From: an uncultured Verrucomicrobiota bacterium | Lineage (GTDB): Bacteria; Verrucomicrobiota; Verrucomicrobiia; Limisphaerales; CAIMTB01 | Direction of reading: 5' to 3' | DNA length: 64,000 nucleotides | NCBI GenBank assembly: GCA_964608505.1 | Contig: CAZSOV010000001.1 | Location: forward strand, 32,630-96,629 | Shown here: one piece after another, positions 1 through 28,835 of the stretch | How positions within the stretch are numbered: position 1 is the first letter of the stretch | Layout of the letters: each line of letters opens with the position of its first letter | Notes under the pieces: generated by a model | The model's database searches: none | Seen by the model: the letters and a program-made list of their open reading frames with translations, nothing else | What the model was told of the DNA's origin: nothing | Program-made: the position numbers and the translations under genes

Positions 1-2311
1 CGATGTCGAGGCCGGCCTGGAGACCGGCGCGGAGGTATTCGTCGAGGGAACGTTCGAGGAAATGGAGGTGGAGCGGGGCTTCGAGCGGGGCGAACACGCC
101 CATCTCGCGTCCGTTCTCGCCGCCCTCGGCGATGGCGGCGGGGCAGGTCGGGGCGAGCCGGGCGAAGGTGGCTTCGCGCGGGTCGTCGGAGGCGAACACG
201 GGGCGGGTGCGGACGCGGATGGCGTGGGCGGCGACGGGGTCGTTTTCGGCGCCGGCAAGGTGGATGGCCCAATCGGGCTGGCAGCGATAGCGCCGGGGCA
301 CGAGCGAACCGGCGGGAAGGTAGGAGAAGCGGACGCAGCCTTCCTGGCGGCGCTCGGCGATGACCGGCGCGGAGAAGAGGACTTCGGAGGCGTCGAATTG
401 CCGGCATTGGACGCCACCCCAGACGGTGGATTGATCGAGGCGCAGGACGGCGCCGGGGGCGGCCAGGGCGGGGGCGGCGGGTTGGTCGGGGAGACCGAGG
501 ATGGAGCGGGTCACGGTGACGATGGACACGGTGTCGGCGACGACGAGTCCGCCGACGATGGAATCGGTGACGGTGACGGCGAGTTCGGAGTTCGGGCGGG
601 CGAGGGTGGCGTCGATGCGCAGGCGGCGGTCGTGGACGGGCGGAAGCGAGACATGGGCGAGCTCGAGGGCACCGAGGTGACCGGGGAGCACGCGGAGCGG
701 GCCGTCGAGGAGCAGTCCGTGGAAGGTGATGGTGCCGGGATCGGGATGGTCGGTCGGGGCGGTGCCCTCGATTTCGAGGGCGCCGAGCAGATGGGGTTGG
801 AGGCGGTCGGCGGAGAGGGTGCCGACGGGGCGGACCCAAACGCCGGGTTCCTGTTCGAGGGCGGGCCAGTCGGCGGCGACGACGAGCAGGCGGCTGCGTT
901 CGGGGATGCGCAGGCGGAGGGCGCCGACGAGATCCGCCTCGTAACGCTGGCTGTCCATGAGGCAGAGGATGCCGATGGTGCCGGGGGGTTGGAGGTTCCA
1001 GTCCTCGACGGCATCAGCGAAGGAGGCGTGGAGGATGCCGGGTTCGGCGGGGAGCAGGCGGCTGACGCCGCGTTGCCAGGTGGCAGCGGCGACGAGGTCG
1101 GAGGGAATGGCTTCGCGCCGGTCGTAGGGGCCGGCGCCGAGGGGCGCGGAGAAGCCGCGGGCCCAGACGGCTCGCAGGCGGGCGGGGGCGCGTCCGGCGG
1201 CGAAGGCGACCTGACCGAGGACGGGATCGACGGCGACGCGGACGGGAAGGTCGACGGGGGCACCATCGGCGGCGCGGCGGTAGGTGCGCTGGGATTCGAC
1301 GGGGGTCCAGCCGCGGGAGAAATCGGCGATGACGATTTCGGCGGCGGGGATGGCGTTAGGTTCGTCGTCGGGGAAGAGCTGGAAGACGGGGCGTTGGGCG
1401 CCGAGGTGGAGGAGGTCGGCGGGGGGGAGGGCGTCGGCGAGGGACTGGCGGAGGGCCTCGAGTTCGCGGTGGAGGGGGAGGCGGCGGAGGGGATCGGGGA
1501 CGTCGCGGCGGGCGGCGAGGTCGGTGACGGTGGCGCCGGAGGCGGGGTCGAGGCCGAGGGGGCGGTTGAAGAGGCGGACGGGATGACCGAGGGGATGGAG
1601 GAACCAGCGTTCGACGGGGTCGCCGGGGTTGGCGGGCGGGAGGGCGGGGCGGGCTTCGAGGGCGAAGCGGGCGACGGGGGGCGGGGCGTCGAGGGTGGCC
1701 TCGGGCGGGGTGAAGACGCGCAGGGGCCAGAGGTGGATGCCGAGGTTGGGGAGATTGAAGCGGCCGCGGGAATGGGCGCCGGCGATGCGGCGGACCTCGG
1801 GGAGGTGGTGGATGGAGTTGAAGGGCGTGCCGAGGCGTTCGAGGGCGTCGAGGTCGCGGAGGTTGGGGACGAGCCAGGCGTCGGGGCGACGGTGGTTGGA
1901 GTGCTGGGTTTGGACGAGGTGCAGGAAGAACTCGACGACGTGGGCGTACCAGCCGGTGAGGTCGCGGGCCAGCTGTTCGAGCATGGCGGGGGTGCCCTTG
2001 CGACGGCGGTAGTCGAGGGTGTTGGCGACGAAGGCGCGCGGGGTGAAGACGGAGCCGGCGGTGGCGGGGAGTTCGTCGATGCCGAGGAGTTGGGCGAGGT
2101 AGGGCAGGACCCAGGCCTCGCAGGTTTCGACGAAGGCGTTGTCGTGGAGTTGGTCGAGCTGGCCTTCGACGCGCCCGATCTCGGCGGCCATGGCGGCGGC
2201 GAGGGCCCGGAGCGGTCCCTCCCGCTGGCCGAGGGCGAGCGCGATTTCCTCGTCCCGCTGGCGGTAGAGCTGCGGGAGGTGTTCCAGGAGATGGTCGGCG
2301 GTCCAAGGCAT
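1..2311 (-). CDS. eCIS distal baseplate/tail protein, P2 gpI-like (TIGR02242-type N-terminus); 3' end runs off the window
   Basis: Absent from the ORF track because there is no stop in the window. My own translation from the reverse ATG at 2309-2311 stays open down to position 2 (770 codons). It reads MPWTADHLLEHLPQLYRQRDEE..NAFVETCEAWVLPYLAQLLGI.. and later ..EGCVRFSYLPAGSLVPRRYRCQPDWAI... The overlapping + ORF 62..2335 is G/E/A/D-rich antisense junk. Confidence 0.8.
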   Translation of the reverse strand, partial: MPWTADHLLEHLPQLYRQRDEEIALALGQREGPLRALAAAMAAEIGRVEGQLDQLHDNAFVETCEAWVLPYLAQLLGIDELPATAGSVFTPRAFVANTLDYRRRKGTPAMLEQLARDLTGWYAHVVEFFLHLVQTQHSNHRRPDAWLVPNLRDLDALERLGTPFNSIHHLPEVRRIAGAHSRGRFNLPNLGIHLWPLRVFTPPEATLDAPPPVARFALEARPALPPANPGDPVERWFLHPLGHPVRLFNRPLGLDPASGATVTDLAARRDVPDPLRRLPLHRELEALRQSLADALPPADLLHLGAQRPVFQLFPDDEPNAIPAAEIVIADFSRGWTPVESQRTYRRAADGAPVDLPVRVAVDPVLGQVAFAAGRAPARLRAVWARGFSAPLGAGPYDRREAIPSDLVAAATWQRGVSRLLPAEPGILHASFADAVEDWNLQPPGTIGILCLMDSQRYEADLVGALRLRIPERSRLLVVAADWPALEQEPGVWVRPVGTLSADRLQPHLLGALEIEGTAPTDHPDPGTITFHGLLLDGPLRVLPGHLGALELAHVSLPPVHDRRLRIDATLARPNSELAVTVTDSIVGGLVVADTVSIVTVTRSILGLPDQPAAPALAAPGAVLRLDQSTVWGGVQCRQFDASEVLFSAPVIAERRQEGCVRFSYLPAGSLVPRRYRCQPDWAIHLAGAENDPVAAHAIRVRTRPVFASDDPREATFARLAPTCPAAIAEGGENGREMGVFAPLEAPLHLHFLERSLDEYLRAGLQAGLDI

Positions 2312-2374
2312 GGTGATGGCGATCCTGGTTTATGATTATGGCTGGAGGCGGACCCGCACGCGGGCGGACGGCAC

Positions 2375-2872
2375 GGCGCCGCGTGAGGGCACGCGGCCTA
2401 CAGGGGCGGCGTGGGCAATGCTGTAGGCCGGGTCCCCTGACCCGGCGTGACGCGGTCCCCATGGGCGGTGGTCGGGCGTCGCTCCGCGACGCGGTGAAAA
2501 AGAGGGGGCGAGACCGGGGCCTGAAGGCCCCGGCAACCATCGGTCGTCGCTCCGCGACCGCAGGGCGCCGCGTGGGGGCAGGCGGCCTACAACGGCGGAA
2601 TGGGCCATGCTGTAGGCCGGGGCCCCCGACCCGGCGTGATGCGGTCGCCATGGGCGTTGGTCGGTCGTCGCTCCGCGACGCGGTGAAGAAGAGGGGGCGA
2701 GACCGGGGCCTGAAGGCCCCGGCAACCGTCGGTCGTCGCTCCGCGACTGCATGGCGTCGCGTGGGGGCACGCGGCCTACAACGGCGGAATGGGCCATGCT
2801 GTAGGCCGGGTCCCCCGACCCGGCGTGGGTCCGCTGCACGGCGCCGCGTGAGGGCACGCGGCCTACAACGGC
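2375..2872. repeat. 189-bp tandem repeat array (2 full and 2 partial copies) made of short GC hairpins, REP/BIME-like
   Basis: Unit starts are at 2375, 2564, 2753 and 2840 (ggcgccgcgtg[a/g]gggca..). Each full unit contains the inverted repeats ggcctaca..tgtaggcc, ccgggtc-ccc-gacccgg, cgtcgc-tcc-gcgacg (twice) and ccggggcc-tgaa-ggccccgg. Confidence 0.9.
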
Positions 2873-2895
2873 ATGGTGGGGTTGCGGCGAAGGGT

Positions 2896-5800
2896 TCATG
2901 ACGGGGCGCCGAGGGTTTCGAGGCTCAGGGCGTCCGGGTCCACGGCCAGCAATTCGGCGGGAAGGATCTGGCCGGAGGGAAGGACCGAACCGGCGCGGGC
3001 GACAAGGCGGGCTTCGACGGTCGGGGCGGCGCCGACGAAATGGAAGGCGTCGAGATCGACGCCCTGGATTTCGGGCAGGGCGTGGAGGAGGGCGACGATG
3101 TCGCTCGAGGTGACGGCCTGGCCGAGTTCGCGTCGGGCGAAGGACAGGGCGTCGAGGAGGCGGGCGCGGGCGGCGGCGAGGATGGGTTCGGTTTCGACGC
3201 GCTCGTCGATGCGGAGTCGGGCGGCGATGGCGAAGGGACGGGCGAGGTAGGAAACGACCTGGAAGGGGACGCCGCGGTCGCGATGGCGTTCGATGGACGC
3301 GAGCAGGTTGATGAAGGTGGCGTCGTTCGGACCGACGGGGGCGCCGTCAGGGCCGGCCACGGTGAGGAGGATGCCTTGGTCCTGGCCGAACCAGGCCCAG
3401 GCGCTGCGGGCCTTGGCGATGCCGGCGAAGGCGCGGGCGTAGTCGGCGTAATCCGAGAGCGAGACGAGGCGGTCCAAGGTGCGGACGGCGAGGGGGGCGT
3501 TGATCCGGGCGTCGTCGAGGTGCTCGGGGTCCTCGCCGCCGGTGCCGGGGAACGGTTGGGCGACGCCGGTGAGGCCGAGGGGTCGGGAGGCGAGGTTGGA
3601 GAGGCGTCCGGCGGGGAGATTGCCGGGGGTGCCGAGACCGACGCGGAAGGTGGCGGTGACGTTGTTGAGACCGGTGGGCAGGCGACTGCCGGTGCGGCCA
3701 TCGCCGAAGCGCACGACGGAGGTGCCGTCGTCCTCGAGTCGGAGCGTGTAGACCTCGTCCTTGGATCCGCGTCCGTAGAACGAGTCGACGCGTTCCCAGG
3801 CAACGCCGTCGACGCGGACGAGGAGGGTGCTGTCGGCGCCGCCGGGGGCGGTGGGTGAGGAGACGTGGGTGAGGGGGGATTGAGGCAGGGCGAAGGCGGG
3901 GAAGCGGAGGCGGGCATCGCCATGGCCAAGGATCCGGGAGCGGGCGGCGCCGTGGGTCGCGTCAGCGAGATTGGCGCGGAGCACGACGGAGGCGCGTGCA
4001 TGGGCGAGGGACAGGGGTTGGGCGAGGACGATCCGGCGGGCGGCCTGTTCGGGGACGGGCGCGACGGCGTGGATTTCGAGGAGTTCGGCGACGGGGGCGC
4101 CGGTGGCGGGGTCGAGGCTTTCGAGGGCGAGTCGGTGGCCCGGGGCGAGTTCGGGTATGGAATCGGGGACGAGGAAGGCGTCGCCCTGGAGGGGGGTGGG
4201 ATCGAGTTCCTCGGCGAGGGGGAGTTCGCGGCTGCCGGCGAGGACGGCGAGGGTGCGGACGGCCTCGCGGAACGGGGCGAGGGTGGTGGCGTCGGCCTGG
4301 AGGACGGTGGATTTGCCGGAGAGCGCGAAGCTCGAGCGGGAGACCGTTTCGACGCCGGCGACGGGGAGGAGGGCGGTGCCGACGGGATCGTCGAGGTAGG
4401 CGAGGGAACCGGGGAGGACGTCCGGGTATTCCTGGTCGAGGGAGAGCGTGTTGGTGCGGGTGCCGTAGAGGGTGAAATCCTGGACGGCGTTGGCGGGGAG
4501 GGTGGCGACGCGTTCGACGGGGGCGGGGGCGCGGAGGGCCTGGAGAATCGTGTTCTGGAGTTCGAGGCTGGTTTGTTGGACGGCGGAGGAGGCGGTCGTG
4601 CCGTCGCCGGGCAGGGAGACGGGGAGGAGGCCGGAGTCGGAGAGGTTTTGGGCGAGGTTCTCGGTCTGCATGAGACCGGCGAGGGCGGCGAAGGAGAGGG
4701 CGATGCGCGGGTCGCCGCCGATGGCGAAGGCGGCGAGGGCGATCTCGGCGTCGGAGACGGCGAGGCCGTCGTCGCTGGCGAAGGCGTCGGGATCGAAGTC
4801 CTCGTAGAGATCGGGGTCGAGGTGGCGGTCGACGGTCTCGGGATCGGGGGTGCGGGAGAGGAAATCGCCGATGCCCGCGACGAGATTGGCGCCGGGGCCG
4901 AAGGTGGCGGGGTAGGCGACGACCTTGGAGAGGGAGGCGGCGACGAAGGTGAGGAAGCCGCGGCGGGTGCGGAATTGGGCGGGTTTGGGGGTGGCGAGGG
5001 CGGTCTGGAGGGCGGTGTCGACGATGGCCTGGGCCTGGCGGGCGAGGCCGATGCGGAGGGTGCCGAGGGCGAGTTGGCGGAATTCGCCGAGGCTGGCGAG
5101 GAAGGCGTCGGCGGTGGCGCGGGCGCGGGCGGAGAGGTCGGTGGAGGTCAGGAGGCGTTGGATTTCGCCGGCGACGCGGTTGAGGAGGGCGATGGGGTGG
5201 CCGCGTTGGAAGGCGAGGAGGAGATCGCGGGCCTGGGTGACGAAGGAGGAGGGATTGCCGGTGGAGGAAGGGTTGAAGGCGGTGATCCGGCCGGCGGAGA
5301 CGGTCATGCCGCGGAGGGAATCGACGAGGCCGCGGATGCCTTGGACGAAGCGAAGGAGCGAGGTGTCGACCTGGTTGGTGAGATCGACGCGGAGGGTGAG
5401 GAGTTGTTGGAGGCCCTGACCGAGCGTCTCGAGGACGCCGGCGAGCTGGGTGGCGGCGGCAATCGGGCCCGCGGCGACCTCGCCGGCGACGGTGCCGAGG
5501 ATGGCCTGGAGGGCCTGGGCGGTGGTGCGGAGGGAACCGCCGACGAGGTCGAGGCCGCGGACGCCGGTGCCGGCGGCGGAGAAGCCGGCGGTGGACACCT
5601 GGGTGCGGAACGCGGCATCGACGGTGTCGACGTAGCGGGCGACGTCGTCGCGGACGCGTTGGGCGATGGACTCGGCGGTGGAGGGTGGGGCGGACCGGAG
5701 GACGGCGACGGCGTCGGGGCTGGTGAAGCGGGAGGCGAAACTGCCGGGGAGATGGATGTTGAACCCGGGCCATTCGAGGCGTTCCCCGGGGGGGATATCG

Positions 5801-6696
5801 GCGTCTTCGTCGAGGCCGAGGATCTCGCGCTTGGAGGCGGCGGGGAGGGATTTCCAGTCGGGGGCGGCGGCGCCGAACACGGCGGCTTTGGCGGCGAAGG
5901 CGACGACTTTGGGGAAGCCGGCAGGGAGGGGGCCGGGGGCGGCGGCAAGGGGTTGGGCGAGGGAGACGAGGGTGACCTTGCGATCGTAGTCCTCGGCGAG
6001 GTTGGCGATGGTGGCGACCTGGTAGGTGCCGCCGAGGGGGGCAAACTGGAGGACGAGCCGAGAGGACACGCGCAGGCCGAGTCCGGTTCCGCGGAGGGTG
6101 ACGACGGTCTTGCCGGCCTCCCAGATCTGGGGGCGGGTGAGTTTGGGGGTGAATTTGTTCCAACCGGGACGCGCGACGACGGGGGCAAGGGTTTCGAAGG
6201 TCTGGGGCAGTTCCTGGCCGACGGGGAGGCTTTGGACCTGGGTGCCGGCGGGGACCTCCACCGTGTCGGGCAGGCCGGGGGCGGTCTGGACCTCGAAGGC
6301 GAGCGTGGTGGAGGCGGCGACGCCGGGTTTGAGTTCGTAACCGATGCTGCGGGCCAGCTCGAGGACGGAGCGGCGTTCGACGGCGGTGGGGAGGTAACCT
6401 TCGTTGGCCTGGACCTCGGCGTAGAAGGTCACGACGTCGAGCATGACGGCGCAGGTGTCGAGCAGGGCCACGGCGGCGCTCTCGTCGCCGCGCGCGGTAT
6501 GGGCGCGGAGTCCCTCGGAACGCGCCGCGGCGTCGAGCATGGACTCCTTGAACGTGCCGTGGACGCCCACGCGATAGCGGAGCCGGGTGCGGCCCGGGAT
6601 GTTGTTCGTGCCGACGGGGGACTCGGGCAGGTCGAGGCGGCCCGCGGGTGCGGAGCAGTCGTCGCAACAGGACGGGAGCCGGGTGGGATCGCTCAT
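2896..6696 (-). CDS. large baseplate wedge protein, second baseplate-J/gp6-like paralog (Afp11/12-like)
   Basis: 1266-aa ORF. The N-terminal segment ..AAVALLDTCAVMLDVVTFYAEVQANEGYLPTAVERRSVLELARSIGYELKPGVAAST.. carries the baseplate-J-type signature. There is an ATGA start/stop overlap with the upstream gene at 6693-6696. Confidence 0.85.
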   Translation of the reverse strand: MSDPTRLPSCCDDCSAPAGRLDLPESPVGTNNIPGRTRLRYRVGVHGTFKESMLDAAARSEGLRAHTARGDESAAVALLDTCAVMLDVVTFYAEVQANEGYLPTAVERRSVLELARSIGYELKPGVAASTTLAFEVQTAPGLPDTVEVPAGTQVQSLPVGQELPQTFETLAPVVARPGWNKFTPKLTRPQIWEAGKTVVTLRGTGLGLRVSSRLVLQFAPLGGTYQVATIANLAEDYDRKVTLVSLAQPLAAAPGPLPAGFPKVVAFAAKAAVFGAAAPDWKSLPAASKREILGLDEDADIPPGERLEWPGFNIHLPGSFASRFTSPDAVAVLRSAPPSTAESIAQRVRDDVARYVDTVDAAFRTQVSTAGFSAAGTGVRGLDLVGGSLRTTAQALQAILGTVAGEVAAGPIAAATQLAGVLETLGQGLQQLLTLRVDLTNQVDTSLLRFVQGIRGLVDSLRGMTVSAGRITAFNPSSTGNPSSFVTQARDLLLAFQRGHPIALLNRVAGEIQRLLTSTDLSARARATADAFLASLGEFRQLALGTLRIGLARQAQAIVDTALQTALATPKPAQFRTRRGFLTFVAASLSKVVAYPATFGPGANLVAGIGDFLSRTPDPETVDRHLDPDLYEDFDPDAFASDDGLAVSDAEIALAAFAIGGDPRIALSFAALAGLMQTENLAQNLSDSGLLPVSLPGDGTTASSAVQQTSLELQNTILQALRAPAPVERVATLPANAVQDFTLYGTRTNTLSLDQEYPDVLPGSLAYLDDPVGTALLPVAGVETVSRSSFALSGKSTVLQADATTLAPFREAVRTLAVLAGSRELPLAEELDPTPLQGDAFLVPDSIPELAPGHRLALESLDPATGAPVAELLEIHAVAPVPEQAARRIVLAQPLSLAHARASVVLRANLADATHGAARSRILGHGDARLRFPAFALPQSPLTHVSSPTAPGGADSTLLVRVDGVAWERVDSFYGRGSKDEVYTLRLEDDGTSVVRFGDGRTGSRLPTGLNNVTATFRVGLGTPGNLPAGRLSNLASRPLGLTGVAQPFPGTGGEDPEHLDDARINAPLAVRTLDRLVSLSDYADYARAFAGIAKARSAWAWFGQDQGILLTVAGPDGAPVGPNDATFINLLASIERHRDRGVPFQVVSYLARPFAIAARLRIDERVETEPILAAARARLLDALSFARRELGQAVTSSDIVALLHALPEIQGVDLDAFHFVGAAPTVEARLVARAGSVLPSGQILPAELLAVDPDALSLETLGAPS

Positions 6697-9154: not shown

Positions 9155-9547
9155 TCAGAACGCGCGTTCGAAGTGGGCGGTGGTGCGTTCGCGGGTGCGG
9201 CGGAGCAGGTAGCTGATGTCGATGCGGAGGACGTTGTCCTCGGCGGTGACCTGGAGGGCGGTGACCTCGATGAGATGGCCGAGCCACTGCTGGAGGGCGG
9301 CCTCGGCGGTGACGCGCGTGGTTTCGGCGAGCAGGGCGCTGTTGGGGCTGAACACGAGCTGGTGCAGGCCGCTGCCGAGCGAGGGCCGGTTGACGCGCTC
9401 GCCGGGGGCGGTGAAGAGGACCTGCTCGACCAGGTGCCGGACGTGGTCCTCGTGGGTGGCGCGGGCGGCGCGTCCGTCCCAGCCGACGCGGAAGGGGAAC
9501 TCGACGGCGCCGACGGTGGGGAAGTGGCGGTTGGCTTGTTCGGCCAT
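9155..9547 (-). CDS. GPW/gp25-family baseplate wedge protein (Afp9-like)
   Basis: The last 130 aa of ORF 9155..9844, starting at the ATG at 9545-9547. Sequence MAEQANRHFPTVGAVEFPFRV..HVRHLVEQVLFTAPGERVNRPSLGSGLHQLVF..LRIDISY is a typical gp25 lysozyme-like fold sequence. Confidence 0.9.
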   Translation of the reverse strand: MAEQANRHFPTVGAVEFPFRVGWDGRAARATHEDHVRHLVEQVLFTAPGERVNRPSLGSGLHQLVFSPNSALLAETTRVTAEAALQQWLGHLIEVTALQVTAEDNVLRIDISYLLRRTRERTTAHFERAF

Positions 9548-20623: not shown

Positions 20624-21019
20624 TCAGCGGGGCGGCGGCTCGGTCAGGGCCCGGAACACCGCGGAGGCAAGGCCGAGGCCGACGGCGTAGGACGACGGGG
20701 CGGCGGCGAGGGGGAGGTGGGTGGAAAGGGAGGCGCGGGGTTCGGGCGGCGCACCGGCGGGGGCGAGGTCCGAGAGGTTCGAGAGGTTCGAGAGGTCCGC
20801 GAGGCGGGCGCGCGGGAGGCGGGCGAGGCCGTCGCGGAGGCCGGCGGCGACGAGGGACGGGGTGAGCGGCCCGAGGCCGTGGATTTCGAGGTGATCGAGG
20901 TGGAGATGGAGTTCGGGACCGGCGGGGGAGGCCGGGGACGGGTCTGCGTCCGGGGCCGGGGCCGGGAGGGGCGCCGGGGGCCGGTGGGGATGGGGACGGG
21001 TGGGGACGGGCACGATCAT
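20624..21019 (-). CDS. hypothetical 131-aa protein (eCIS operon orphan)
   Basis: ORF with an ATGA overlap to the ATPase stop (21016-21019), ending 9 nt before the giant gene. It has a Pro-rich N-terminus and then ..LHLHLDHLEIHGLGPLTP..LSNLSNLSDL... I recognise no family. Confidence 0.55.
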   Translation of the reverse strand: MIVPVPTRPHPHRPPAPLPAPAPDADPSPASPAGPELHLHLDHLEIHGLGPLTPSLVAAGLRDGLARLPRARLADLSNLSNLSDLAPAGAPPEPRASLSTHLPLAAAPSSYAVGLGLASAVFRALTEPPPR

Positions 21020-23127
21020 GGGGGCGGGGGACAGGTGTCGCGGGGCGCGGGGTGGAGGGCGCGCAGGTCGAGTTGGGGGGTGGGTTTGTCGATCTTGGCG
21101 AACTCGGTCTCGGCGGCGCGCTGGAGATGGGCCATGGAGACGGGTTCGCCGGTTTCGGCGGCGAGGAAGGCGGCGTTGAGTGCGATGTTGCGGATGTTGC
21201 CGCCGGCGAGGCTGAGGCGGGCCAGGCGGTCGAGGTCGAGGTCGCGCACCGGGGTGCGGGGCGGGAAGGCGCGTTGCCAGATCAGGCGGCGGGTGGCCTG
21301 GTCGGGGAACGGGAACTCGACGAGGAACCGGATGCGGCGGAGGAAGGCGGGGTCGATGACCTCGCGGAAGTTGGTGGTGAGGATGGCGAGTCCGCGATAG
21401 GTCTCGAGGCGCTGGAGGAGGTAGGAGATCTCCATGTTGGCATGGCGATCGTGGCTGTCCTTGACCTCGCTGCGACGTCCGAAGAGCGCGTCGGATTCGT
21501 CAAAGAGCAGCACCGCGCCGCCGGCATCCGCGGCGTCGAAGATCTCGCGCAGGTTGGCCTCGGTCTCGCCGATGTACTTGCTGACCGTGGCGCTGAGGTC
21601 GACGCGGAGGAGGTCGAGGTCGAGGTCGTTGGCGATGACCTCGGCGGCGAGGGATTTGCCGGAGCCGCTGGGGCCGGAGAAGAGCGCGGTGATGTTGAGG
21701 CCGCGGCTGCCTTTCTCGGCGAACCCCCATTCCTGGTAGACGCGGGCGCGGTGCTTGACCTGGCGGGCGGCCTCGCGGAGCAGGTCGAGCTGGGGCGCGG
21801 GAAGGACGAGGTCGTCCCAGGAGACGCGGGATTCGACACGTTGGACGAGGGCGCCGAGGCGGGGTCGGGCCTCCTCGCGGCAGGCCTGCCAGAGGGCGTG
21901 TTCGAACGGGGGCGGCGTCTCGCCGGGGCCGCCGGGGCCGCGGGCGAGGGCGTTGCGGCAGGCGGCGAAGAGGGCGCCCGCGCCGAGTTCGAACTGCATG
22001 GCGACGCGGCTGGCGAAGGTGGCGGAACCCCGGGCGCGGACCTCGGTGAAGGCCTCGATGAGGTCGCGTTTCTCGGCGAAGTTCGGCGGGGGAATCTCGA
22101 CGGGAATCGCGAGGTCGAGAGGCGCGAACCGCGGGGCGCTGGCGAGGATCAGGCCGCCGGCGCTCAGGGAGATCCAGTGCCGGATCGCCTCGGGCAGGCA
22201 ACGGGTCGAGGCCGGCGTGCCGGAGGCCGGCTCGGCGCCGAGCGCGGTGGCGTCGAGGAACAGGATGGCGCGGGCGAGCAGGGCCTCGCGTTGCCAGAGC
22301 CGGGCGAGTTCGTGGCGTTCGGTGTGATCGGACGGCAGCGCGACGGCGGCGAGTTCCATGACGGCGAACCCGGCGCCGCGCGCGGCCTGCCACGCGAGGG
22401 CGCGGGCGGCCCCGGCGTCGGTGCCGCGCAGTTCGATGACCGGGAACTCGAGGAAATGGGGGGCGCCGGCCCAGAGTCCGACGATCCGCCCGGCCAGTGC
22501 GGCCTGGGACGGGGTGAGAGGGGCGGACGGGGACTCGGAACGGAGGAAGGGCAGCAGGCGCGCGTCGGGCGGGGCGGCGCGTCCGATCAGGAAGTACAGG
22601 ATGCGCTCGTCGAGGCGCCACGGTTGGGCGGCCTGGGTCAGGCCGGGGCCGGGCGCGGGCGCGAGTTCCAGGAGGCGCCAGTGGCGGAGGGGCGCGGACG
22701 GGGCGAGCAAATCCAGGGGCACGACCGCGGGCAGGAGATCCCGGAGGAGCGCGGCGTGGAGCCATGGACGTCCGGTGACGCGTGCGCCCAGTTCCTGAAG
22801 GGCCCGGGCGCAACCGGTGTCGAGTTCCTGGGCGACGAGCAGGGCGAGGGCCAGCCGTTCGCCGGTTCCGAGGCCAAACAGGCGCCCGAGTTGTTCGAGC
22901 GAGGGAAGACGCAGGTCGGGAAGGTCGCGTGCCGGGCCGTCGGGTTGCGCGATTTCCGCAAGCCAGGCTCGGAGGCCGTCCAGCCAGGCGGCCAGGTCCA
23001 CCGGCGGGGCCGACTCGACAGCGGGATCGTCCCGGAGCCCGGCTGCGCCCGCGGTGGCCGGCGGGGCCGGCGCGGGCGCGGGGTTCGGCCCGGGGACGGG
23101 CGACGCGGGTTCGACGGCGGCGCTCAT
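21016..23127 (-). CDS. AAA+ ATPase (Afp15-like eCIS assembly ATPase)
   Basis: 703 aa. The C-terminal AAA module has Walker A (LFSGPSGSGKSLAAEVIA) and Walker B (AVLLFDESDALFGRR), followed by ..LLQRLETYRGLAILTTNF... It has a ~430-aa N-terminal extension. Confidence 0.9.
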   Translation of the reverse strand: MSAAVEPASPVPGPNPAPAPAPPATAGAAGLRDDPAVESAPPVDLAAWLDGLRAWLAEIAQPDGPARDLPDLRLPSLEQLGRLFGLGTGERLALALLVAQELDTGCARALQELGARVTGRPWLHAALLRDLLPAVVPLDLLAPSAPLRHWRLLELAPAPGPGLTQAAQPWRLDERILYFLIGRAAPPDARLLPFLRSESPSAPLTPSQAALAGRIVGLWAGAPHFLEFPVIELRGTDAGAARALAWQAARGAGFAVMELAAVALPSDHTERHELARLWQREALLARAILFLDATALGAEPASGTPASTRCLPEAIRHWISLSAGGLILASAPRFAPLDLAIPVEIPPPNFAEKRDLIEAFTEVRARGSATFASRVAMQFELGAGALFAACRNALARGPGGPGETPPPFEHALWQACREEARPRLGALVQRVESRVSWDDLVLPAPQLDLLREAARQVKHRARVYQEWGFAEKGSRGLNITALFSGPSGSGKSLAAEVIANDLDLDLLRVDLSATVSKYIGETEANLREIFDAADAGGAVLLFDESDALFGRRSEVKDSHDRHANMEISYLLQRLETYRGLAILTTNFREVIDPAFLRRIRFLVEFPFPDQATRRLIWQRAFPPRTPVRDLDLDRLARLSLAGGNIRNIALNAAFLAAETGEPVSMAHLQRAAETEFAKIDKPTPQLDLRALHPAPRDTCPPPP

Positions 23128-24347
23128 GGGATGTCGACGAGGGCGGAGGGCAGGACGGACGGCGGGGTGGTGTCGCGGTTCAACCAGCGGCTTTCGGTGC
23201 GGTCGACGCGGAGGCGGACGACGGCGGGGCCGGGGGGAACGGTGAAGCCCTCGAAGCGCAGGTGCGTGGTTTCGGCGAGGATCTGGGGCCCGACGATTTC
23301 CTCGGAACCGACGACGAGGGAGACCTTCTGGGCCGGGCGCACGGGCGGGGCGACGTCGAGTTCGAGGGCCACGCGTCCGTCGGGGGCGGGGTCGCGTTCG
23401 ACGAGGGTGACGACGGGCGTGGGCAGGACGGAGAAGGGGATGGCGTTGGAGGGACGGGGGCTGGCGGCGTCGGGCGGGATGACGGCGAGGTGGAGGTCAT
23501 GGACGCCGCTGGGCCAGTGGGCGGGGACGTCGAAGCGGACCTGCGTGGCGCCGGCATCGGCGGGCGGGATGTCGAGGGGCGCGAGGACGACGGACCGATC
23601 CTGATACCGGGCGTGGACGCGCGGCAGGGTGCCGTCGAGGTGAAGTCCGGCGAGGGTCACGGACTCGCCGGAGAGCGCGGCGGCGGGGGTGGCGGAGGCG
23701 AGACAGGGGACGTGGGGGACGAGGGAGGCGTGGACATTCGGGAGGGGCCGCTGGAGGACGACCATGGGCACGCGGCGGGGTTCGTCGGCCTGAATGAACA
23801 CGACGGAGACCTGGTAGAAGGCGGAGGCGCGATAGGGGACATGGAACGCGGACCAGAGCCGGGCGAAGACGTCCTCGGTGAGGTTGCGATGGCGGATGCG
23901 GATGCGTTCGACCTGCTCGGCGAGACGGGAGCCGACGAGGCTGCGGGCGGCAGGATCGAGGCTGAGCACGTCGAGGATGAGGCTGCGGTCCAGGATGGGC
24001 GTCTGGTGCAGGGCCTGCATCGCGCAGCCGAGGAGCAGTTCGGACTGGAGATCGTCCTGGGCGTAGGCGGTGACGGCGTAGTGGAGCTCGAGGGCCAGGG
24101 GCGGATTGGAGAGGCGACGGCCGCCGGGATCGAAGGCGGGCTGGGCCTCGTTGCGCCACTGGCCGCTTTCGAGGGCCTGGTACATGAACAGGTTGACGCG
24201 CATCCGGGCGGGGTCCTCGCGCGGCGGTTCGGCGGTGACGAAGACGTCGCCCTGCAACAGGCCGTCGAGAGCGTTCTCGACGACGTTGGCTTCCACCAAC
24301 TGGCGCAGGACCCGGGAGACGGCGGCGATGGCAAGGGCGTTGGCCAT
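23124..24347 (-). CDS. DUF4255 tail terminator/cap protein (Afp16/Pvc16-like) with C-terminal extension
   Basis: 407 aa. The N-terminus MANALAIAAVSRVLRQLVE..RVNLFMYQ..NPPLALELHYAVTAY matches the DUF4255 pattern. There is an ATGA overlap with the ATPase gene at 23124-23127. Confidence 0.85.
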   Translation of the reverse strand: MANALAIAAVSRVLRQLVEANVVENALDGLLQGDVFVTAEPPREDPARMRVNLFMYQALESGQWRNEAQPAFDPGGRRLSNPPLALELHYAVTAYAQDDLQSELLLGCAMQALHQTPILDRSLILDVLSLDPAARSLVGSRLAEQVERIRIRHRNLTEDVFARLWSAFHVPYRASAFYQVSVVFIQADEPRRVPMVVLQRPLPNVHASLVPHVPCLASATPAAALSGESVTLAGLHLDGTLPRVHARYQDRSVVLAPLDIPPADAGATQVRFDVPAHWPSGVHDLHLAVIPPDAASPRPSNAIPFSVLPTPVVTLVERDPAPDGRVALELDVAPPVRPAQKVSLVVGSEEIVGPQILAETTHLRFEGFTVPPGPAVVRLRVDRTESRWLNRDTTPPSVLPSALVDIP

Positions 24348-24354
24348 GGTGGAT

Positions 24355-25188
24355 TCAGGCAGCGCCCCGGCTGCGGCGGGCGAGGTAGCGTTCGAGCGAG
24401 GCGGGCGCGGCTTCGTTGGCGTGCGCCGACGCGGGCGGTGTCGACGGACGCGGCGGCTGCGCGTGCACGACGATGCGACCGATGTGCACGTGCAGCACGG
24501 GGGACGGGGGTGTCGGCGCCGGGGCGGTCCGGGACATCGGGGAACCTTCGGGTTCGACGCGCGCCGGGCGCATCCCGCCCTCGCGCGCGGGCCGGGGTTC
24601 GCGGGAGTCGGAGTCGGGCGCCTCGAGTCCCAACGCGTCCAGCGCGGATTCCACGGCGGCCTCGAGGCGCGCGCGGCGTTCCGCGGGGTCCACCGTGATC
24701 GCGAGTGGTGACTCGGGCTGCCCGGTCTTCGGTGCTGGATCCAGCGGGTCGGAGCGTTGCGGCATCGCCGCGCGCGTCTCCGTTCGGGCCTCCCGGGGAA
24801 TCGCGTCCCGCGGGTCGGACGCCGCGGAGGGCCCCGGGTTTGAGGCGGGTTCGGATTCGGAGACGAACAGGGCGCGCTGGGCCGCGCGGTCCCGCGCTTC
24901 CCCCGCGTCGCCGCGCGGCTCGCGGGACGGCGCGACGGGAATCGGGCGCCCGACAGCGTCCGGTCGGGAGGTGGATGGATCGGAGGTCGAATCCTCGGGG
25001 GGGCGGGAGCGGGGAGGCAACGGGGCGGGAGACGGGACGGCGGGCGCCGGGGAGGATGCGTCGGCGACCGCGGGCGGGGATTCGGAATCCGCGCCCGGCA
25101 TGGGTTCGAAGCGGGACGGGAGGCGGGGTTCGATTCCCGACCGTCGTTCGAGGGCGAGCGCGCCGAGTCGTTGCAGGAAGGAACTCAT
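24355..25188 (-). CDS. Pro/Ser/Ala-rich protein with conserved-looking termini; candidate tape-measure/ruler (Afp14 position)
   Basis: The last 277 aa of the 949-aa ORF 24355..27204; the upstream part of that ORF overlaps the tube and sheath genes out of frame. It starts at the ATG at 25186-25188 (ATGA overlap). N-terminus MSSFLQRLGALALERRSGIEPRLPSRFEP; C-terminus ..VLHVHIGRIVVHAQPP..SLERYLARR. Confidence 0.7.
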   Translation of the reverse strand: MSSFLQRLGALALERRSGIEPRLPSRFEPMPGADSESPPAVADASSPAPAVPSPAPLPPRSRPPEDSTSDPSTSRPDAVGRPIPVAPSREPRGDAGEARDRAAQRALFVSESEPASNPGPSAASDPRDAIPREARTETRAAMPQRSDPLDPAPKTGQPESPLAITVDPAERRARLEAAVESALDALGLEAPDSDSREPRPAREGGMRPARVEPEGSPMSRTAPAPTPPSPVLHVHIGRIVVHAQPPRPSTPPASAHANEAAPASLERYLARRSRGAA

Positions 25189-25973
25189 TGGGGAACGGCT
25201 TCGACGAGATCGAGGTAGGCCCGGCGGCGTTCGGGCGCGAGGCCCAGGATGGCGTCCTGCGTCCAGCCGTAGGCGGTGGCGAGCTGGTGGATGTCGCGCA
25301 GCAGACGCCGGGCGGCGACGGAAAGTTCGCGCCAGAGGAACGCGCCGCAGTCGAGGTGCGATTCCCAACGCTGCCGGCAGCCGGGGCAGTCGAGTTGGAA
25401 CAGGATCTCGGACAGCGGATCGCGTTCGATCTGGGCGCGGGCAATGGCGTCGAGCAGGTCCGTGGGGAGCGCTTCGGCGGACACCGGGCTGCCGTGCCGG
25501 AGGGCCCGGGTCACGCAACGCCGGACGATGCGGGCACCGATCTCGTCCGGGCCGGCGTCGGGCGTCGCGGATTCGAGCAGGTCGCGGGGGGTGGCGGCGC
25601 GGAATCGGATCTGCCAGTCCGCGTGGTCCAGAGTTCCGTCGTCGGCGGACGGCACCGGGTCGGCGACGCCCGCGAGGAGGTCGCGAACGTCGATCCGGAA
25701 CTCGACCTCCTGGGAGCAGCGGGGGCAGCGGTCGAGGCCCCGGAGGTCGCTGCCGAACGTGGCGAGCCGCAGCCGGAGCAGCGTCGCGTCGCGCCGGCCC
25801 AGGGGCAGGTCGAGGGCCAGGTCCAGGGGGACGGTGCAGGTGGCGGCGACGAGGACGGACGGGCGGAGGGCGGACGAGGCGCGGAGTCCCTGTTCCCACG
25901 CCACGAGCAACCGCTCGCCCGCGAGGGGCGGGATCTCGAGGGGCGGCCGGGGCGGGGGAGGGGATTCGGTCAT
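25185..25973 (-). CDS. conserved eCIS accessory protein with two CxxC pairs (tail-assembly-chaperone position)
   Basis: ORF 25185..26054. The ATG at 25971-25973 gives MTESPPPP..; an alternative start at 26054 is possible. It contains ..LDRCPRCSQEVEF.. and ..LDCPGCRQRWES.. and ends ..WTQDAILGLAPERRRAYLDLV. Confidence 0.7.
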   Translation of the reverse strand: MTESPPPPRPPLEIPPLAGERLLVAWEQGLRASSALRPSVLVAATCTVPLDLALDLPLGRRDATLLRLRLATFGSDLRGLDRCPRCSQEVEFRIDVRDLLAGVADPVPSADDGTLDHADWQIRFRAATPRDLLESATPDAGPDEIGARIVRRCVTRALRHGSPVSAEALPTDLLDAIARAQIERDPLSEILFQLDCPGCRQRWESHLDCGAFLWRELSVAARRLLRDIHQLATAYGWTQDAILGLAPERRRAYLDLVEAVPQ

Positions 25974-26069
25974 GGGCCGGGAAGGCGGTAACGGAAACCG
26001 CGCGAGCCGGGACCGAACCCCGGGGTGACAGGGCGCGCGGTTCGGCCGGGGCATCGTTGCGGCACCGGG

Positions 26070-26594
26070 TCAGGCTGGAACGGTGAAGGAGGGTTCCTTG
26101 GGTTCCTTGACGTCGGGGTCCTCCTCCCAGCCTTCGTGGGTGATCTGGATGCTCTCGATGGCGACGGCCTCGCCGTTGGCATCGAGGTCGGGGACCTTGG
26201 TGATCTCGGAGACCCAGCAGCGGTAGACCTTGTAGGCCAGCGCGACCTGGCCGGCCTCGTTCATCACCTGGATGACGATGTCCTTGCGGAAGTCCTGGAG
26301 GGAGGCCTCCTTGCCGGACTTGGCACCGTAGTTCCAGACCTTGTTGGCCCAGCGCAGGAACTCCTTGTCGTGGGTGAGGCCGCGCTCGAGCGTGATGGTC
26401 TCGTACTCGGTGCGACCGGGCATCTTGCGGCTGGTGCTGGGGTCGCCGCCCTCGCGCCACTCCACGACCTTGGTGGAGCGCTTCAGGGCGGTGCACTTGC
26501 TCACGCCGCAGACGTCCCGTCCGTCCCAGCGGACGCGGAACTTGAAGTTGCGGTACGGGTCGAAGCGTTCGGGATTGACGACGAATTGGGCCAT
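26070..26594 (-). CDS. tail tube protein (T4 gp19-like, Afp1-like)
   Basis: 174 aa: MAQFVVNPERFDPYRNFKFRVRWDGRDVCGVSKCTALKRSTKVVEWREGGD..MPGRTEYETITLERG, the classic tube signature. Confidence 0.95.
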   Translation of the reverse strand: MAQFVVNPERFDPYRNFKFRVRWDGRDVCGVSKCTALKRSTKVVEWREGGDPSTSRKMPGRTEYETITLERGLTHDKEFLRWANKVWNYGAKSGKEASLQDFRKDIVIQVMNEAGQVALAYKVYRCWVSEITKVPDLDANGEAVAIESIQITHEGWEEDPDVKEPKEPSFTVPA

Positions 26595-26684: not shown

Positions 26685-28835
26685 TCAGCCGGCGACCTGG
26701 CCGGCCATCTGGCGGATGCGGATCAGGACGAACTCCGCGGGTTTGAGGGGCGCGAAGCCGACCTCGGCGTTGACGATGCCGAGGTCGATGTCGGCCTGGG
26801 TGGTGGTCTCGTCGTCGCACTTCACGTAGAAGGCGTCGGTGGGGCTCTGTCCCTGCAGGGCGCCGCGCCGGAACAGATTGTTCATGAAGGTGCCAATGCT
26901 CAGGCGCACCTGCTGCCACAGCACGAAGTCGTTCGGTTCGAACACGGCCCACTGGGTGCCCCGGTACAGGCTCTCCTCGATGTACAGCGTCAGGCGCCGG
27001 ACGGAGAGATACTTCCAGTCGGAGGCGAGCCGGTCGTCGCCGTGCAGCGTGCGGGCGCCCCACACCACGGGGCCGGCGGCGGGGCGCACTTGGAGGCAGT
27101 TGATGCCGAGCGGATTCAGCTGGCCCACCTCGCCGTCGATGAGGTTGTAGGCGAGCTCGCGCACGCCCACCAGGCCGGCGTCGAGGCCGGCGGGGGATTT
27201 CCACACGCCGCGTTCGGCGTCGGTGCGGCTGATGACGCCGGCCACGACGCCGCTCGGCGCGAAGGTCTCGAGCGCGTTGTCCCGGAGCGGGTCCGCGACG
27301 CGCACCCGCGGGAAGTACATCACGGAGTTCGGGTCGCGCAGGCCGGCCAGTTCCTCGATGCCCTCGATGGCCTGGTCGGGGCGGAGCCAGCCCGAGGGCG
27401 GATCGATGATCACCATCGCGCGTCGTTCGCGGGCGTATTGCAGCGCCTCGGTCCAGAGCGTGTCGGGCACGTCGACCTCGCGGCTGAGCGGCGGGATGAC
27501 GAGCAGGTTGAACAGATCCACATCCTGGAGCCGGAACAGGCCCTGCTTCGCCTCGCGCATGCCCACCCCGATGAAGTCCTGGTCCGTCAGTTCCCCGCCG
27601 TCGTCGCCGCCCGCCAGAGCGACGGGCGCCTCGGTCTCCAGCGGTGCGGCATCCGGAATTTCGCCCTCGAGCCGGACGAGCTGGGAGCCCTGGGCCAGGA
27701 CGGTCGGGGCAAAGCGCGGGGAGGCGGGATCGACCGACAGATTGCGGAGGACCTCGGTCGTCACGGCCCGGCCCTCCGCGTTGACCTCTTCGACGGTGAG
27801 ATTGAAGAGCGCGTCGTCGTTCGGATCGCGCGTGTTGTGGTCCACGCGGAGCCGGAGCTGGTTACCCCACGTCCCCTCGTTGGCGGCGACCACGGCCAGG
27901 CCCTGGACCGGCAGGTCGAGGGTCGCGGTCACCCCCTCCGCGCCGCCCCCGAGATGCACCCGGGTGGCCGGGAGCGGACGCAGGGTGACCAGGGAGGGAT
28001 CCCCGACGACCTGCACCTCGATGTTCGCGCCGTTCAGGCTGCCGTCCACGGTGTCGATGGTCTCCGATTCGAACGTGCCGAGAACGGTGTACGTGCCGTC
28101 GAGGTTGCGTTGCTCCACGACCAGGGCGAACAGGTCCTCGTTGGAGGCGCTGGGCAGGATGCTCACGGCCAGATCGTTTCCGTCGGTCCCCGCGGCGGTC
28201 GCCTCGAACGAGACGACGCCGCCGACGAGCGGCAGGAAACCCCGCGCGGCGCGCGCCTGCGGCGCGCCATCCGCGAGATCCTGCCAGTCCGTCACCACGG
28301 GCAGCGCCGAGAAATCCTCGACGGCGACCAGCGACGTCTCGGCATCGAAATCCCCGGCGAGCGTGGCGACGTCGGAACCCGAAAACCGCTGGCGCCGCAC
28401 GACGACCCATTGACCATCGGGTCCGGGGACGCGTTCCTCGACGTCCACGTGCCGCGTGCCGTCGTCCTCGACCCGCGCGCGCAGCGAGGAACCGCCGGTG
28501 CCCGGGATGGTTTCGGAGAGGATGAATCCCTCGGCCGTGCCGTTATCGAGGGCCACCTGGGCGGAGATGCCGGCCGTGTTGGCGAGCCGCACGATCACGG
28601 CGTCGGAGCCGCCGTTCTGGTAGAACTGGCGCACCGCGTAGCTCGCGGTGCTGTCGAGCCACAGCCCGCCGAAATGCTTCTCGAACGCGCCGTAGTTGGT
28701 GATGCGTACGGCGCGGTCCGTCGGTCCGCGCCGACAGCGTCCGACGAACGCGGTGATCGAGGTGGCGACTCCGGCGACGGTGCGGTTCCCGCTCGGAACC
28801 TCGACGAGATACACTCCAGGTGCGGTAGGATTCAT
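26685..28835 (-). CDS. contractile tail sheath protein (Afp2-4-like), 716 aa
   Basis: N-terminus MNPTAPGVYLVEVPSGNRTVAGVATSITAFVGRCRRGP. C-terminus ..GINCLQVRPAAGPVVWGARTL..WKYLSVRRLTLYIEESL..FYVKCDDETTT.. Confidence 0.95.
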   Translation of the reverse strand: MNPTAPGVYLVEVPSGNRTVAGVATSITAFVGRCRRGPTDRAVRITNYGAFEKHFGGLWLDSTASYAVRQFYQNGGSDAVIVRLANTAGISAQVALDNGTAEGFILSETIPGTGGSSLRARVEDDGTRHVDVEERVPGPDGQWVVVRRQRFSGSDVATLAGDFDAETSLVAVEDFSALPVVTDWQDLADGAPQARAARGFLPLVGGVVSFEATAAGTDGNDLAVSILPSASNEDLFALVVEQRNLDGTYTVLGTFESETIDTVDGSLNGANIEVQVVGDPSLVTLRPLPATRVHLGGGAEGVTATLDLPVQGLAVVAANEGTWGNQLRLRVDHNTRDPNDDALFNLTVEEVNAEGRAVTTEVLRNLSVDPASPRFAPTVLAQGSQLVRLEGEIPDAAPLETEAPVALAGGDDGGELTDQDFIGVGMREAKQGLFRLQDVDLFNLLVIPPLSREVDVPDTLWTEALQYARERRAMVIIDPPSGWLRPDQAIEGIEELAGLRDPNSVMYFPRVRVADPLRDNALETFAPSGVVAGVISRTDAERGVWKSPAGLDAGLVGVRELAYNLIDGEVGQLNPLGINCLQVRPAAGPVVWGARTLHGDDRLASDWKYLSVRRLTLYIEESLYRGTQWAVFEPNDFVLWQQVRLSIGTFMNNLFRRGALQGQSPTDAFYVKCDDETTTQADIDLGIVNAEVGFAPLKPAEFVLIRIRQMAGQVAG

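Follow-up and report, generated by a model that had tools for sequence, protein, structure and literature searches.

Positions 1 to 28,835 of the 64,000-nucleotide stretch of contig CAZSOV010000001.1 analyzed here (hereafter the window) very probably carry, on the minus strand, the main body of a chromosomal contractile injection system (CIS) operon of the Afp/PVC superfamily, a lineage II system that most resembles subtype IIa. The GC content of the window is 72%, and the host, an uncultured high-GC bacterium, is probably diderm. A frame plot of GC content at third codon positions (GC3), together with lists of open reading frames (ORFs) and start-codon mapping, yielded 17 credible co-oriented genes (Table 1), which are transcribed in the order sheath, tube, g3, g4, cap, AAA+ ATPase, g7, a 2,650-aa ORF, tube2, g10, hub, gpV, PAAR-like protein, gp25, J1, J2, and gpI. 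Neighboring genes overlap by 4–8 nt at six junctions (g3/g4, cap/ATPase, ATPase/g7, g10/hub (8 nt), hub/gpV, and J1/J2). The preliminary description of this DNA had reported 17 co-oriented minus-strand genes with overlaps of 4–8 nt, and the GC3 analysis and the ORF and start mapping bear this out. It had also called the operon complete, which does not hold: gpI, the full length of which (782 aa) is known from a 100% identical protein (P0121), has its last 12 codons beyond the window, and a gene for a DUF6519 fiber lies past the left edge. In a short assembly from the same organism (L084), this co-oriented gene begins 11 nt past gpI and encodes at least 720 aa with a DUF6519 match (8.5e-44) and a hint of a β-helix. 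DUF6519 is listed in a 2026 catalog as eBAP5, a baseplate-attachment domain of eCIS (extracellular CIS) tail fibers.

Domains were assigned by Pfam, NCBIfam, and PHROGs searches, by sequence and profile searches of the PDB, and by Foldseek comparison of an AlphaFold2 (AF2) model; the Pfam scan of the window covered the ORFs that passed the GC3 filter. As shown in Table 1, ten proteins had direct Pfam matches (sheath, tube, cap, AAA+ ATPase, CIS_tube protein, Phage_base_V protein, gp25, both Baseplate_J proteins, and Tail_P2_I protein), as did domains of the 2,650-aa protein, and g3, the hub, and the PAAR-like protein were assigned via alignments of orthologues from related loci. Every part of a contractile tail named in the preliminary description was found in this way, the hub and the PAAR-like protein by orthologue profiles. 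The CIS core backbone of Chen et al. (2019) is present in full, with Afp1/5 tubes, an Afp2/3/4 sheath, Afp7/8, Afp9, Afp11, Afp15, and Afp16. Further, the operon encodes a DUF4157 (eCIS_core) protein, which is the criterion of Geller et al. (2021), and does so with two copies of the domain in one protein.

The affinity of the sheath agrees in sequence and in structure. In the PDB sequence search, CIS sheaths matched at ~1e-72 to ~1e-27, with that of Halogeometricum borinquense first (9ezm, 2.2e-72), that of Streptomyces coelicolor second (8bky, 1.6e-70; 8bky and 8bl4 both ~1e-70), and those of Afp, PVC, AlgoCIS, and tCIS at ~1e-35, whereas the R-pyocin sheath reached 3e-9 and T4 gp18 1e-5. The corresponding bit scores were 231–248 for lineage II structures, 99–141 for lineage I, and 39 for pyocin. 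The AF2 model of the sheath (mean predicted local distance difference test score, pLDDT, 76) gave the same ranking in Foldseek, with 9ezm as the top match (3.6e-24), and neither the PDB sequence search nor Foldseek returned a match to TssB or TssC.

These results bear on two other explanations of the locus. A prophage tail that has become defective, or a cargo-free R-type tailocin whose only means of killing is puncture, would be built from structural genes homologous to those of P2 and T4 tails, as the present genes are, and the gene order of the locus resembles the P2/R-pyocin order of sheath, tube, chaperone, tape measure, terminator, and hub. We nevertheless consider it very improbable. 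The Pvc16_N cap, the Afp15-type AAA+ ATPase, and DUF4157 are hallmarks of CIS that are not found in tailocins, the sheath is closer to CIS than to pyocin by the values given above, and no head, portal, terminase, integrase, or lysis family was found by Pfam in the 64-kb window, as the preliminary description had stated for capsid, portal, terminase, lysis, and integrase genes. The preliminary description had named head genes immediately left of the window as a sign of a prophage tail; what adjoins gpI there is the DUF6519 fiber gene. In two relatives that are ~50–55% identical, the cluster ends with the gene for the DUF6519 protein (930 or 1,400 aa), beyond which lie housekeeping genes (glutathione S-transferase and threonyl-tRNA synthetase genes in one, sensor kinase and TonB receptor genes in the other) and no genes for head, lysis, or integrase functions. 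That the locus is a classical type VI secretion system (T6SS; types i–iii) has next to no probability. Such a system would share with the locus the folds of sheath, tube, VgrG-like protein, PAAR protein, and gp25 (TssE), as well as an AAA+ ATPase, but none of the T6SS membrane and baseplate families TssJ, TssL, TssM, TssA, TssF, TssG, and TssK, the membrane components of which the preliminary description had already reported as lacking, was among the Pfam matches of the scanned window ORFs. In addition, the locus encodes gpJ-like and Pvc16_N proteins, which classical T6SS lack, and its sheath is a single phage-type protein without a TssB/C match. Both of these explanations look refuted already. 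The earlier verdict of an eCIS rather than a prophage or T6SS therefore stands insofar as it means an Afp/PVC-class CIS, given the Pvc16_N cap, the Afp15-type ATPase, DUF4157, and the affinity of the sheath; the word "extracellular" in it is unproven.

The subtype was judged by published traits and similarity to PDB entries. Chen et al. (2019) (PMC6899500) describe six eCIS subtypes, each with a distinct gene organization: two copies of afp11 occur in IIa and IIc, afp8 is split into gp27 and gp5 ORFs in IIa, IIb, and IIc, afp10 is missing only in IIb, lineage II as a rule lacks afp14, and divergent afp12/13 genes are present in IIa and IIb and absent from most IIc loci. All IIa traits are seen here, namely two afp11 copies, a split afp8 (hub and gpV are separate genes that overlap by 4 nt), afp10, no recognized afp14, and the gpI-like protein and DUF6519 fiber as candidate divergent afp12/13. 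With respect to IIc, we note that the gpI-like protein and the fiber are present and that the closest relative of known structure comes from a IIa sheath. Several points weigh against this assignment or its wider reading. First, the choice of IIa over IIc rests on published traits and PDB similarity and not on a reference phylogeny or formal sheath tree. Second, the window's own hub and PAAR proteins were recognized solely through orthologue profiles, and no tape-measure protein was recognized by Pfam, PHROGs, or NCBIfam. Third, the window showed no lysis or release genes and no Imm22 immunity gene, and the nearest experimentally characterized relatives are not extracellular (that of H. borinquense is membrane-bound and T6SS-like; those of Streptomyces are cytoplasmic).

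We compared gene order across related loci. A sheath-alignment scan with one genome per species gave 79 loci, to which the window proteins were mapped by tblastn; they span Chloroflexota, Cyanobacteria, Acidobacteriota, Pseudomonadota, Bacteroidota, Planctomycetota, Nitrospirota, Actinomycetota, Thermoplasmata, and others. Order was counted, with a flank of 10 kb, in the 49 loci with 6 kb or more of sequence downstream of the sheath, which represent more than 10 bacterial and archaeal phyla. The succession of tube, PF12322 gene (g3), cap, and ATPase was kept in 47 of these 49 loci, DUF4157 genes followed the ATPase in 33 of 44, and tube2, g10, hub, gpV, PAAR, gp25, and J came next wherever the 10-kb flank sufficed. 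In a 60%-identical metagenomic relative (L002), the first half has exactly the same order, and the same is true of the downstream half in L085 and L086. The preliminary description had presented the module order as non-canonical. The order itself is as it was described, but it is no notable departure, as 47 of 49 relatives are alike and it is the norm for lineage II. We conclude that the order sheath, tube, two small genes, cap, ATPase, cargo, and baseplate is standard for the lineage and is unusual only by comparison with Afp/PVC. Conserved neighborhoods of PVC-metallopeptidase toxins, the PVC AAA+ ATPase, and phage-derived genes were described by Zhang et al. (2012).

The closest relatives overall (96%, 77%, and ~60% identity) come from metagenome assemblies only. 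Exact-protein look-up of the sheath and gpI returned only short Logan contigs from SRR13608703, that of J2 gave no match, and gpI used by itself in a genome scan led to no relative. Of the named relatives, the one with the nearest sheath (54% identity) is an Opitutales metagenome-assembled genome (GCA_020831525.1; L003/L004), the locus of which has decayed to the sheath and an 84-aa fragment of the tube, followed by unrelated genes on the opposite strand. In five related loci, baseplate genes lie directly upstream of the sheath (J2 and gpI in L013, L024, L057, and L064; gpI alone in L035); the two modules are thus circularly permuted, in a P2-like order.

The gene between g7 and tube2 encodes a putative cargo or effector of 2,650 aa, for which the NCBI annotation has an identical gene model (P0250). 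Its first ~104 residues are basic and rich in Pro, Ala, and Arg and are probably disordered; a DUF4157 domain follows, then ~1,700 aa of conserved, Ala/Leu-rich sequence, a second DUF4157 domain, and an Ntox14 toxin domain. Hydrophobic segments lie at residues 1152–1171, 1454–1472, and 1664–1687 (Kyte-Doolittle window). Each DUF4157 domain has an HExxH motif, at residues 175 and 1969, and His-175, Glu-176, His-179, His-1969, Glu-1970, and His-1973 are invariant in 13 aligned members of the family. The double-DUF4157 layout recurs in all four members scanned with Pfam, of which P0256, P0262, and P0265 also have Ntox14 and P0255 gave no Ntox14 match. Because of the invariant HExxH motifs and the presence of Ntox14 in three of the four, we regard the arrangement as a fixed family architecture and not as an accident of one genome. 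Residues 87–1564 are 31% identical to the L002 orthologue. A word-indexed search for homologues of the protein gave just 5 proteins, and an exhaustive search with residues 600–1799 found only 32 representatives among 1.84 billion proteins, the majority being giants of 2,100–2,600 aa matched at an equal relative position. Nothing besides DUF4157 and Ntox14 was detected in PHROGs, NCBIfam, or PDB-profile searches, and an AF2 model of residues 1000–1800, built from a 2-sequence alignment, was mostly helical, with a pLDDT of 35, and unusable for a fold search.

A reading of the giant protein as a one-off fusion of two cargo genes was rejected on the evidence of the double-DUF4157 members (four of four) and the HExxH pair, although one relative (L085) does carry a separate 866-aa DUF4157-Ntox14 gene. 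Among close relatives, the cargo gene varies in size: the window has one of 2,650 aa, L086 one of 2,535 aa, and L085 the separate 866-aa gene. The family thus occurs in long and short (possibly split) forms.

Published cargoes offer a frame for this protein. The cargo pattern given by Geller (2021) is DUF4157, a long linker, and a toxin; in the PROCIS preprint, a disordered N-terminal domain together with DUF4157 is the loading region, and the ATPase is needed; and Zhang et al. (2012) describe Ntox14 as a toxin exported by a PVC-type system and linked to PVC-metallopeptidase, which they take to be a releasing peptidase. Judged by its predicted features, a basic, disordered-type N terminus and then DUF4157, the giant protein matches the known cargo layout. 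A second frame is the Tme group described with S. davawensis (Nagakubo et al., Nat Commun 2024; PMC11126660), which extends over distant phyla and is defined by a giant ORF whose product has DUF4157 at its N terminus. The tme-like gene, the largest ORF of its cluster, directly precedes the tube-initiator and baseplate genes, and its product has predicted transmembrane helices, coiled coils, and remote homology to phage tape measures. The giant protein of the window is likewise the product of the largest ORF of the cluster, has a DUF4157 domain at residues ~105–185, and is separated from tube2 by a 31-nt gap; tape-measure homology went undetected in it by PHROGs, Pfam, NCBIfam, and PDB-profile searches at the HMMER level. 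We consider it conceivable, if unlikely, that in the diderm IIa-like clade the giant family doubles as cargo and as the tape measure that is missing. One polypeptide would then span the tube lumen, set the length of the particle, and insert into the target membrane at ejection, and its two metallopeptidase-like domains would cut the giant protein itself and so free the toxin. If true, this would take the Tme idea, shown so far in one Streptomyces species, to Gram-negative hosts, and it would account for the missing Afp14 of lineage II.

The way in which the machine would work can be outlined from characterized relatives. The baseplate would nucleate polymerization of the tube and the extended sheath, which the cap would end, and the AAA+ ATPase would load the cargo, which would be the 2,650-aa protein, into the tube lumen, as Alg15 does in AlgoCIS. 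Binding of the fiber would lead to rearrangement of the baseplate and contraction of the sheath, by which the spike and tube would be driven through the target envelope and the cargo expelled. The DUF4157 domains, which resemble Zn-metallopeptidases, may then free the C-terminal Ntox14 toxin by proteolysis (cf. Zhang et al., 2012). We lean toward particles that are released from the cell and act on other cells, because a fiber gene is present and no membrane-anchor gene was recognized. "Extracellular" is still a guess, because those lineage II systems that have been characterized work within the cell or from its membrane. The same machine might instead go unreleased, either anchored in the membrane like a T6SS, as in H. 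borinquense (IIa), or free in the cytoplasm, where, like the systems of S. coelicolor and S. davawensis, it would bring about regulated cell death or the release of DNA, and this we hold to be possible but somewhat doubtful. The closest solved sheaths belong to such systems, the giant ORF, with its DUF4157 near the N terminus and its place just before the baseplate genes, fits the Tme-type group of S. davawensis, and a lysis cassette was not seen. On the other hand, the DUF6519 fiber gene after gpI, with its variable C terminus, suggests an external target (although the fiber is not decisive, as H. borinquense too has Cis12/13), no multi-pass membrane protein like Hbor_38620 adjoins the cluster, and the upstream u2 protein, which has a single hydrophobic segment, is not conserved in relatives. 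In the publications consulted, we found no experimentally characterized lineage II CIS from a diderm bacterium.

Table 1. Features of the CIS locus and its immediate surroundings, in the order of transcription of the operon (positions in the window)
Feature	Positions	Strand	Length	Evidence or remark
Sheath (Cis2/Afp2-4 equivalent)	26685..28835	-	716 aa	PF17482 2.8e-12; PF04984
Inner tube protein (Cis1/Afp1)	26070..26594	-	174 aa	PF06841 Phage_T4_gp19 2.5e-45
g3, PF12322 (T4_baseplate family) protein, two CxxC pairs	25185..26054	-	289 aa	Orthologue matches
g4, Pro/Ala/Arg/Ser-rich	24355..25188	-	277 aa	No family match
Tube and sheath terminator cap (Cis16/Afp16)	23124..24347	-	407 aa	PF14065 Pvc16_N (DUF4255) 1.3e-40
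AAA+ ATPase (Cis15/Afp15)	21016..23127	-	703 aa	PF00004 1.3e-23; PF22977 2.4e-11
g7, Pro/Ala/Leu-rich	20624..21019	-	131 aa	No family match
Giant putative cargo/effector	12662..20614	-	2,650 aa	PF13699 7.6e-46 in two stretches; PF15522 1e-13
DUF4157/eCIS_core no. 1 of the giant protein, HEIVH	20060..20302	-	Residues ~105–185	tblastn to DUF4157 genes of 30+ loci
DUF4157/eCIS_core no. 2 of the giant protein, HELAH	14675..14926	-	Residues ~1897–1980	Best Pfam stretch 1904–1980
Ntox14 toxin domain of the giant protein	13133..13408	-	Residues 2403–2494	PF15522 1e-13
tube2, second tube-fold protein = tube initiator (Cis5/Afp5-like)	11980..12630	-	216 aa	PF19266 CIS_tube 1.7e-9
g10, small baseplate protein	11585..11959	-	124 aa	phrog_7145 'baseplate wedge subunit' 6.6e-6
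gp27/gpD-like spike hub, first half of split VgrG	10456..11592	-	378 aa	Orthologue profile
gpV/gp5 OB-fold spike	9893..10459	-	188 aa	PF04717 3.1e-19
PAAR-like spike tip (DUF4280 type)	9550..9882	-	110 aa	Orthologue matches
gp25/gpW baseplate wedge	9155..9547	-	130 aa	PF04965 2e-15
J1, gpJ/gp6-like copy 1 (Cis11a)	6693..9140	-	815 aa	PF04865 3.2e-7; TIGR02243 4.4e-79
J2, gpJ/gp6-like copy 2	2896..6696	-	1,266 aa	PF04865 5.8e-7; TIGR02243 4.4e-59; phrog_219 1.5e-24
Intergenic repeat block between J2 and gpI	2312..2895	.	584 bp	2.4 copies of 189-bp unit, short hairpins
gpI-like baseplate protein (Tail_P2_I N terminus)	1..2311	-	770 of 782 aa in window	PF09684 8e-7
Upstream ORF, co-oriented	29003-30700 (start uncertain; longest ORF to 30961)	-	~565 aa	No family
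Upstream ORF u2, co-oriented, one N-terminal hydrophobic segment	30958-31656	-	~232 aa	No family

Several proteins of the tube module deserve comment. The sheath is ~200 aa above the lineage norm of ~515 aa, and the excess lies at residues ~85–300 (window positions 27936–28583); short relatives align over just 56–59% of the protein. AF2 models the extra part as β-sandwich domains with a pLDDT around 90, and the extension is common only to a clade of ~720-aa sheaths known from metagenomes. The g3 protein itself matches PF12322 at 1.9e-4, which is under the Pfam cutoff, but 23 of 24 orthologues match (best 2.7e-21), and Cys-110, Cys-113, Cys-223, and Cys-226 are invariant. For g3, the hub, and the PAAR-like protein, PDB searches with single sequences yielded nothing useful; with family profiles, matches emerged for the hub and, weakly, for the PAAR-like protein, and g3 had no PDB relative with either the single sequence or the family profile. 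No Pfam, PHROGs, or NCBIfam match was obtained for g4, the composition of which suggests that it is mostly disordered, and it can be aligned with its positional orthologue in L002 at a C-terminal motif only. As g4 occupies the position of the tape measure in P2-like phages, we infer a possible tape-measure role by analogy. Searches of Pfam and PHROGs with g7 gave no match, and its position is kept in L002 by a 118-aa gene. The two proteins share a strand-like motif of alternating His and hydrophobic residues (LHVHIGRIVVH in g4 and LHLHLDHLEIH in g7). The AAA+ ATPase consists of an N-terminal winged-helix domain and one AAA module, with Walker A (GPSGSGKS) at residue 485 and Walker B (VLLFDE) at 539.

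In the baseplate module, g10 is kept at the same position in 15 loci. A hub profile built from 10 orthologues matches the N-terminal region of the VgrG chain 9rce_F (1.7e-7) and, weakly, the Cis8 chains of AlgoCIS and tCIS. The PAAR-like protein of the window has no Pfam match of its own, and its top PDB match was the phiKZ PAAR tip, at 0.067; four of six aligned orthologues match DUF4280 (1.7e-6) and PAAR_motif (2.8e-4), three of five are 42–46% identical to the window protein, and Cys and His residues are conserved. Both J proteins are above the cutoff of TIGR02243 (NCBIfam) and are paralogous (2.6e-17). We note that J2, at 1,266 aa, is longer than its orthologues in L085 (882 aa) and L086 (919 aa): residues 326–746 (~420 aa; window positions 4459–5721) replace a linker of ~25–55 aa, a net gain of ~350–380 aa. 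This segment, which had no Pfam or PHROGs match, may be an extra peripheral baseplate domain.

Between J2 and gpI lies a repeat block that looks like an insertion of REP (repetitive extragenic palindromic) or MITE (miniature inverted-repeat transposable element) type. Its core (2367–2827) has 91% identity between copies by Tandem Repeats Finder, and its motif counts are far over those of shuffled sequences. It contains hairpins, such as GTCGCGGAGCGAC and GCCGGGGCCTTCAGGCCCCGG, and a 27-nt motif, GTAGGCCGCGTGCCCCCACGCGGCGCC, that occurs 4 times and in the block only; the hairpin GTCGCGGAGCGACG recurs at 30736–30811 between the two upstream ORFs, where it has a terminator-like look. The block is absent from relatives, in which the gap between the J2 stop and the gpI start is 3 nt (L085) or 14 nt (L086). 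A 187-aa ORF at 2336–2899 was rejected as a gene, as it shows no GC3 periodicity and is made of the 189-bp tandem repeat. An Rfam scan of the window, repeat block included, and a promoter scan returned nothing, and terminator-like sites were no more frequent than expected by chance. Along the operon, (G-C)/(G+C) of the coding strand starts at -0.04 in the sheath gene and drops to about -0.33 in those for the hub, J1, J2, and gpI, and C3/(C3+G3) climbs from 0.61 to 0.86, compared with 0.44–0.74 in 15 flanking genes and 0.52–0.63 in orthologues from relatives. This codon and strand asymmetry is strong and confined to the CIS operon (1–28835 versus 32000–64000).

The two ORFs upstream of the sheath have no counterpart upstream of the L002 sheath and no match in related loci outside this organism; they could encode a regulator or an anchor or be unrelated. 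Farther upstream, the stretch from 32 to 64 kb is ordinary chromosome, with genes for a short-chain dehydrogenase/reductase, a histidine-kinase/cyclase response regulator, an ECF-type (extracytoplasmic function) sigma factor, a Ser/Thr kinase-WD40 protein, a GH44 protein, DnaK, DnaJ, two P-type ATPases, FtsX/MacB permeases, and a CAP-domain protein; a 798-aa ORF at 32895–35291 matched no Pfam family.

The locus is one more well-preserved example of lineage II (IIa-like) from an uncultured high-GC bacterium, and its difference in gene order from Afp/PVC is a hallmark of the lineage and no anomaly. By itself it is no challenge to current understanding, and the questions that it touches belong to the whole lineage. 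For these it is a candidate locus, be it for the length ruler, loading, deployment in diderms, the PF12322 zinc-ribbon protein, or the double-DUF4157/Ntox14 giant.

Among known systems, P2 and R-pyocin tails share with the locus the succession of sheath, tube, small genes, terminator, and hub, then V, W, J, I, and fiber, and have gpD and gpV as separate genes, but they are without an AAA+ ATPase, DUF4157 cargo, or Pvc16_N cap and have a clear tape-measure gene. Afp of Serratia entomophila and PVC of Photorhabdus (Ia) belong to the same superfamily, share eight core parts (Afp1/5, 2-4, 7, 8, 9, 11, 15, and 16), and carry cargo inside the tube, the ATPase being required for loading. They differ in their order of tube/sheath, baseplate, Afp14, Afp15, Afp16, and toxins, in their three sheath paralogues, fused VgrG, single Afp11, Afp14 tape measure, and adenovirus-like Afp13 fibers, and in a far lower sheath similarity (about 1e-35). 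The cargoes Cgo1 and Cgo2 of AlgoCIS (Algoriphagus machipongonensis) resemble the giant protein in having a disordered N-terminal domain, DUF4157, and a variable C-terminal domain and are loaded via Alg15; however, they are of 498 and 1,228 aa with one DUF4157 each, the AlgoCIS sheath is of the lineage I type (about 1e-35), and the system has a tape measure, Alg14.

The Streptomyces systems are closer. CIS-Sc of S. coelicolor (IId; PDB 8bky, 8bl4, and 9gtp) has the second-best sheath and is likewise of lineage II, with a cap, an ATPase, and DUF4157-linked effectors; in contrast to the two copies and the split gene here, IId has one afp11 and an unsplit afp8 (Chen et al., 2019), and CIS-Sc is cytoplasmic and mediates cell death. 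The Tme protein of S. davawensis ends in an EndA-like nuclease where the window protein has a second DUF4157 and Ntox14, and its host is a monoderm actinomycete in which the system has a developmental function, but the giant size, N-terminal DUF4157, position, and hydrophobic segments are all found in the window protein. Finally, the "archaeal T6SS" of H. borinquense (IIa; Sci Adv 2024, PMC11566945) differs in being archaeal and plasmid-borne, in encoding several small DUF4157 toxin-immunity pairs as opposed to a single 2,650-aa protein, in having a conserved anchor with six transmembrane segments, Hbor_38620, and in acting from the membrane, whereas no such anchor or immunity gene was seen here, and the window sheath is ~200 residues longer. 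It has no recognizable cis6 or cis14. Its sheath is nevertheless the best match by both sequence and structure, and in both loci the structural genes form two subclusters with the DUF4157/toxin region between them.

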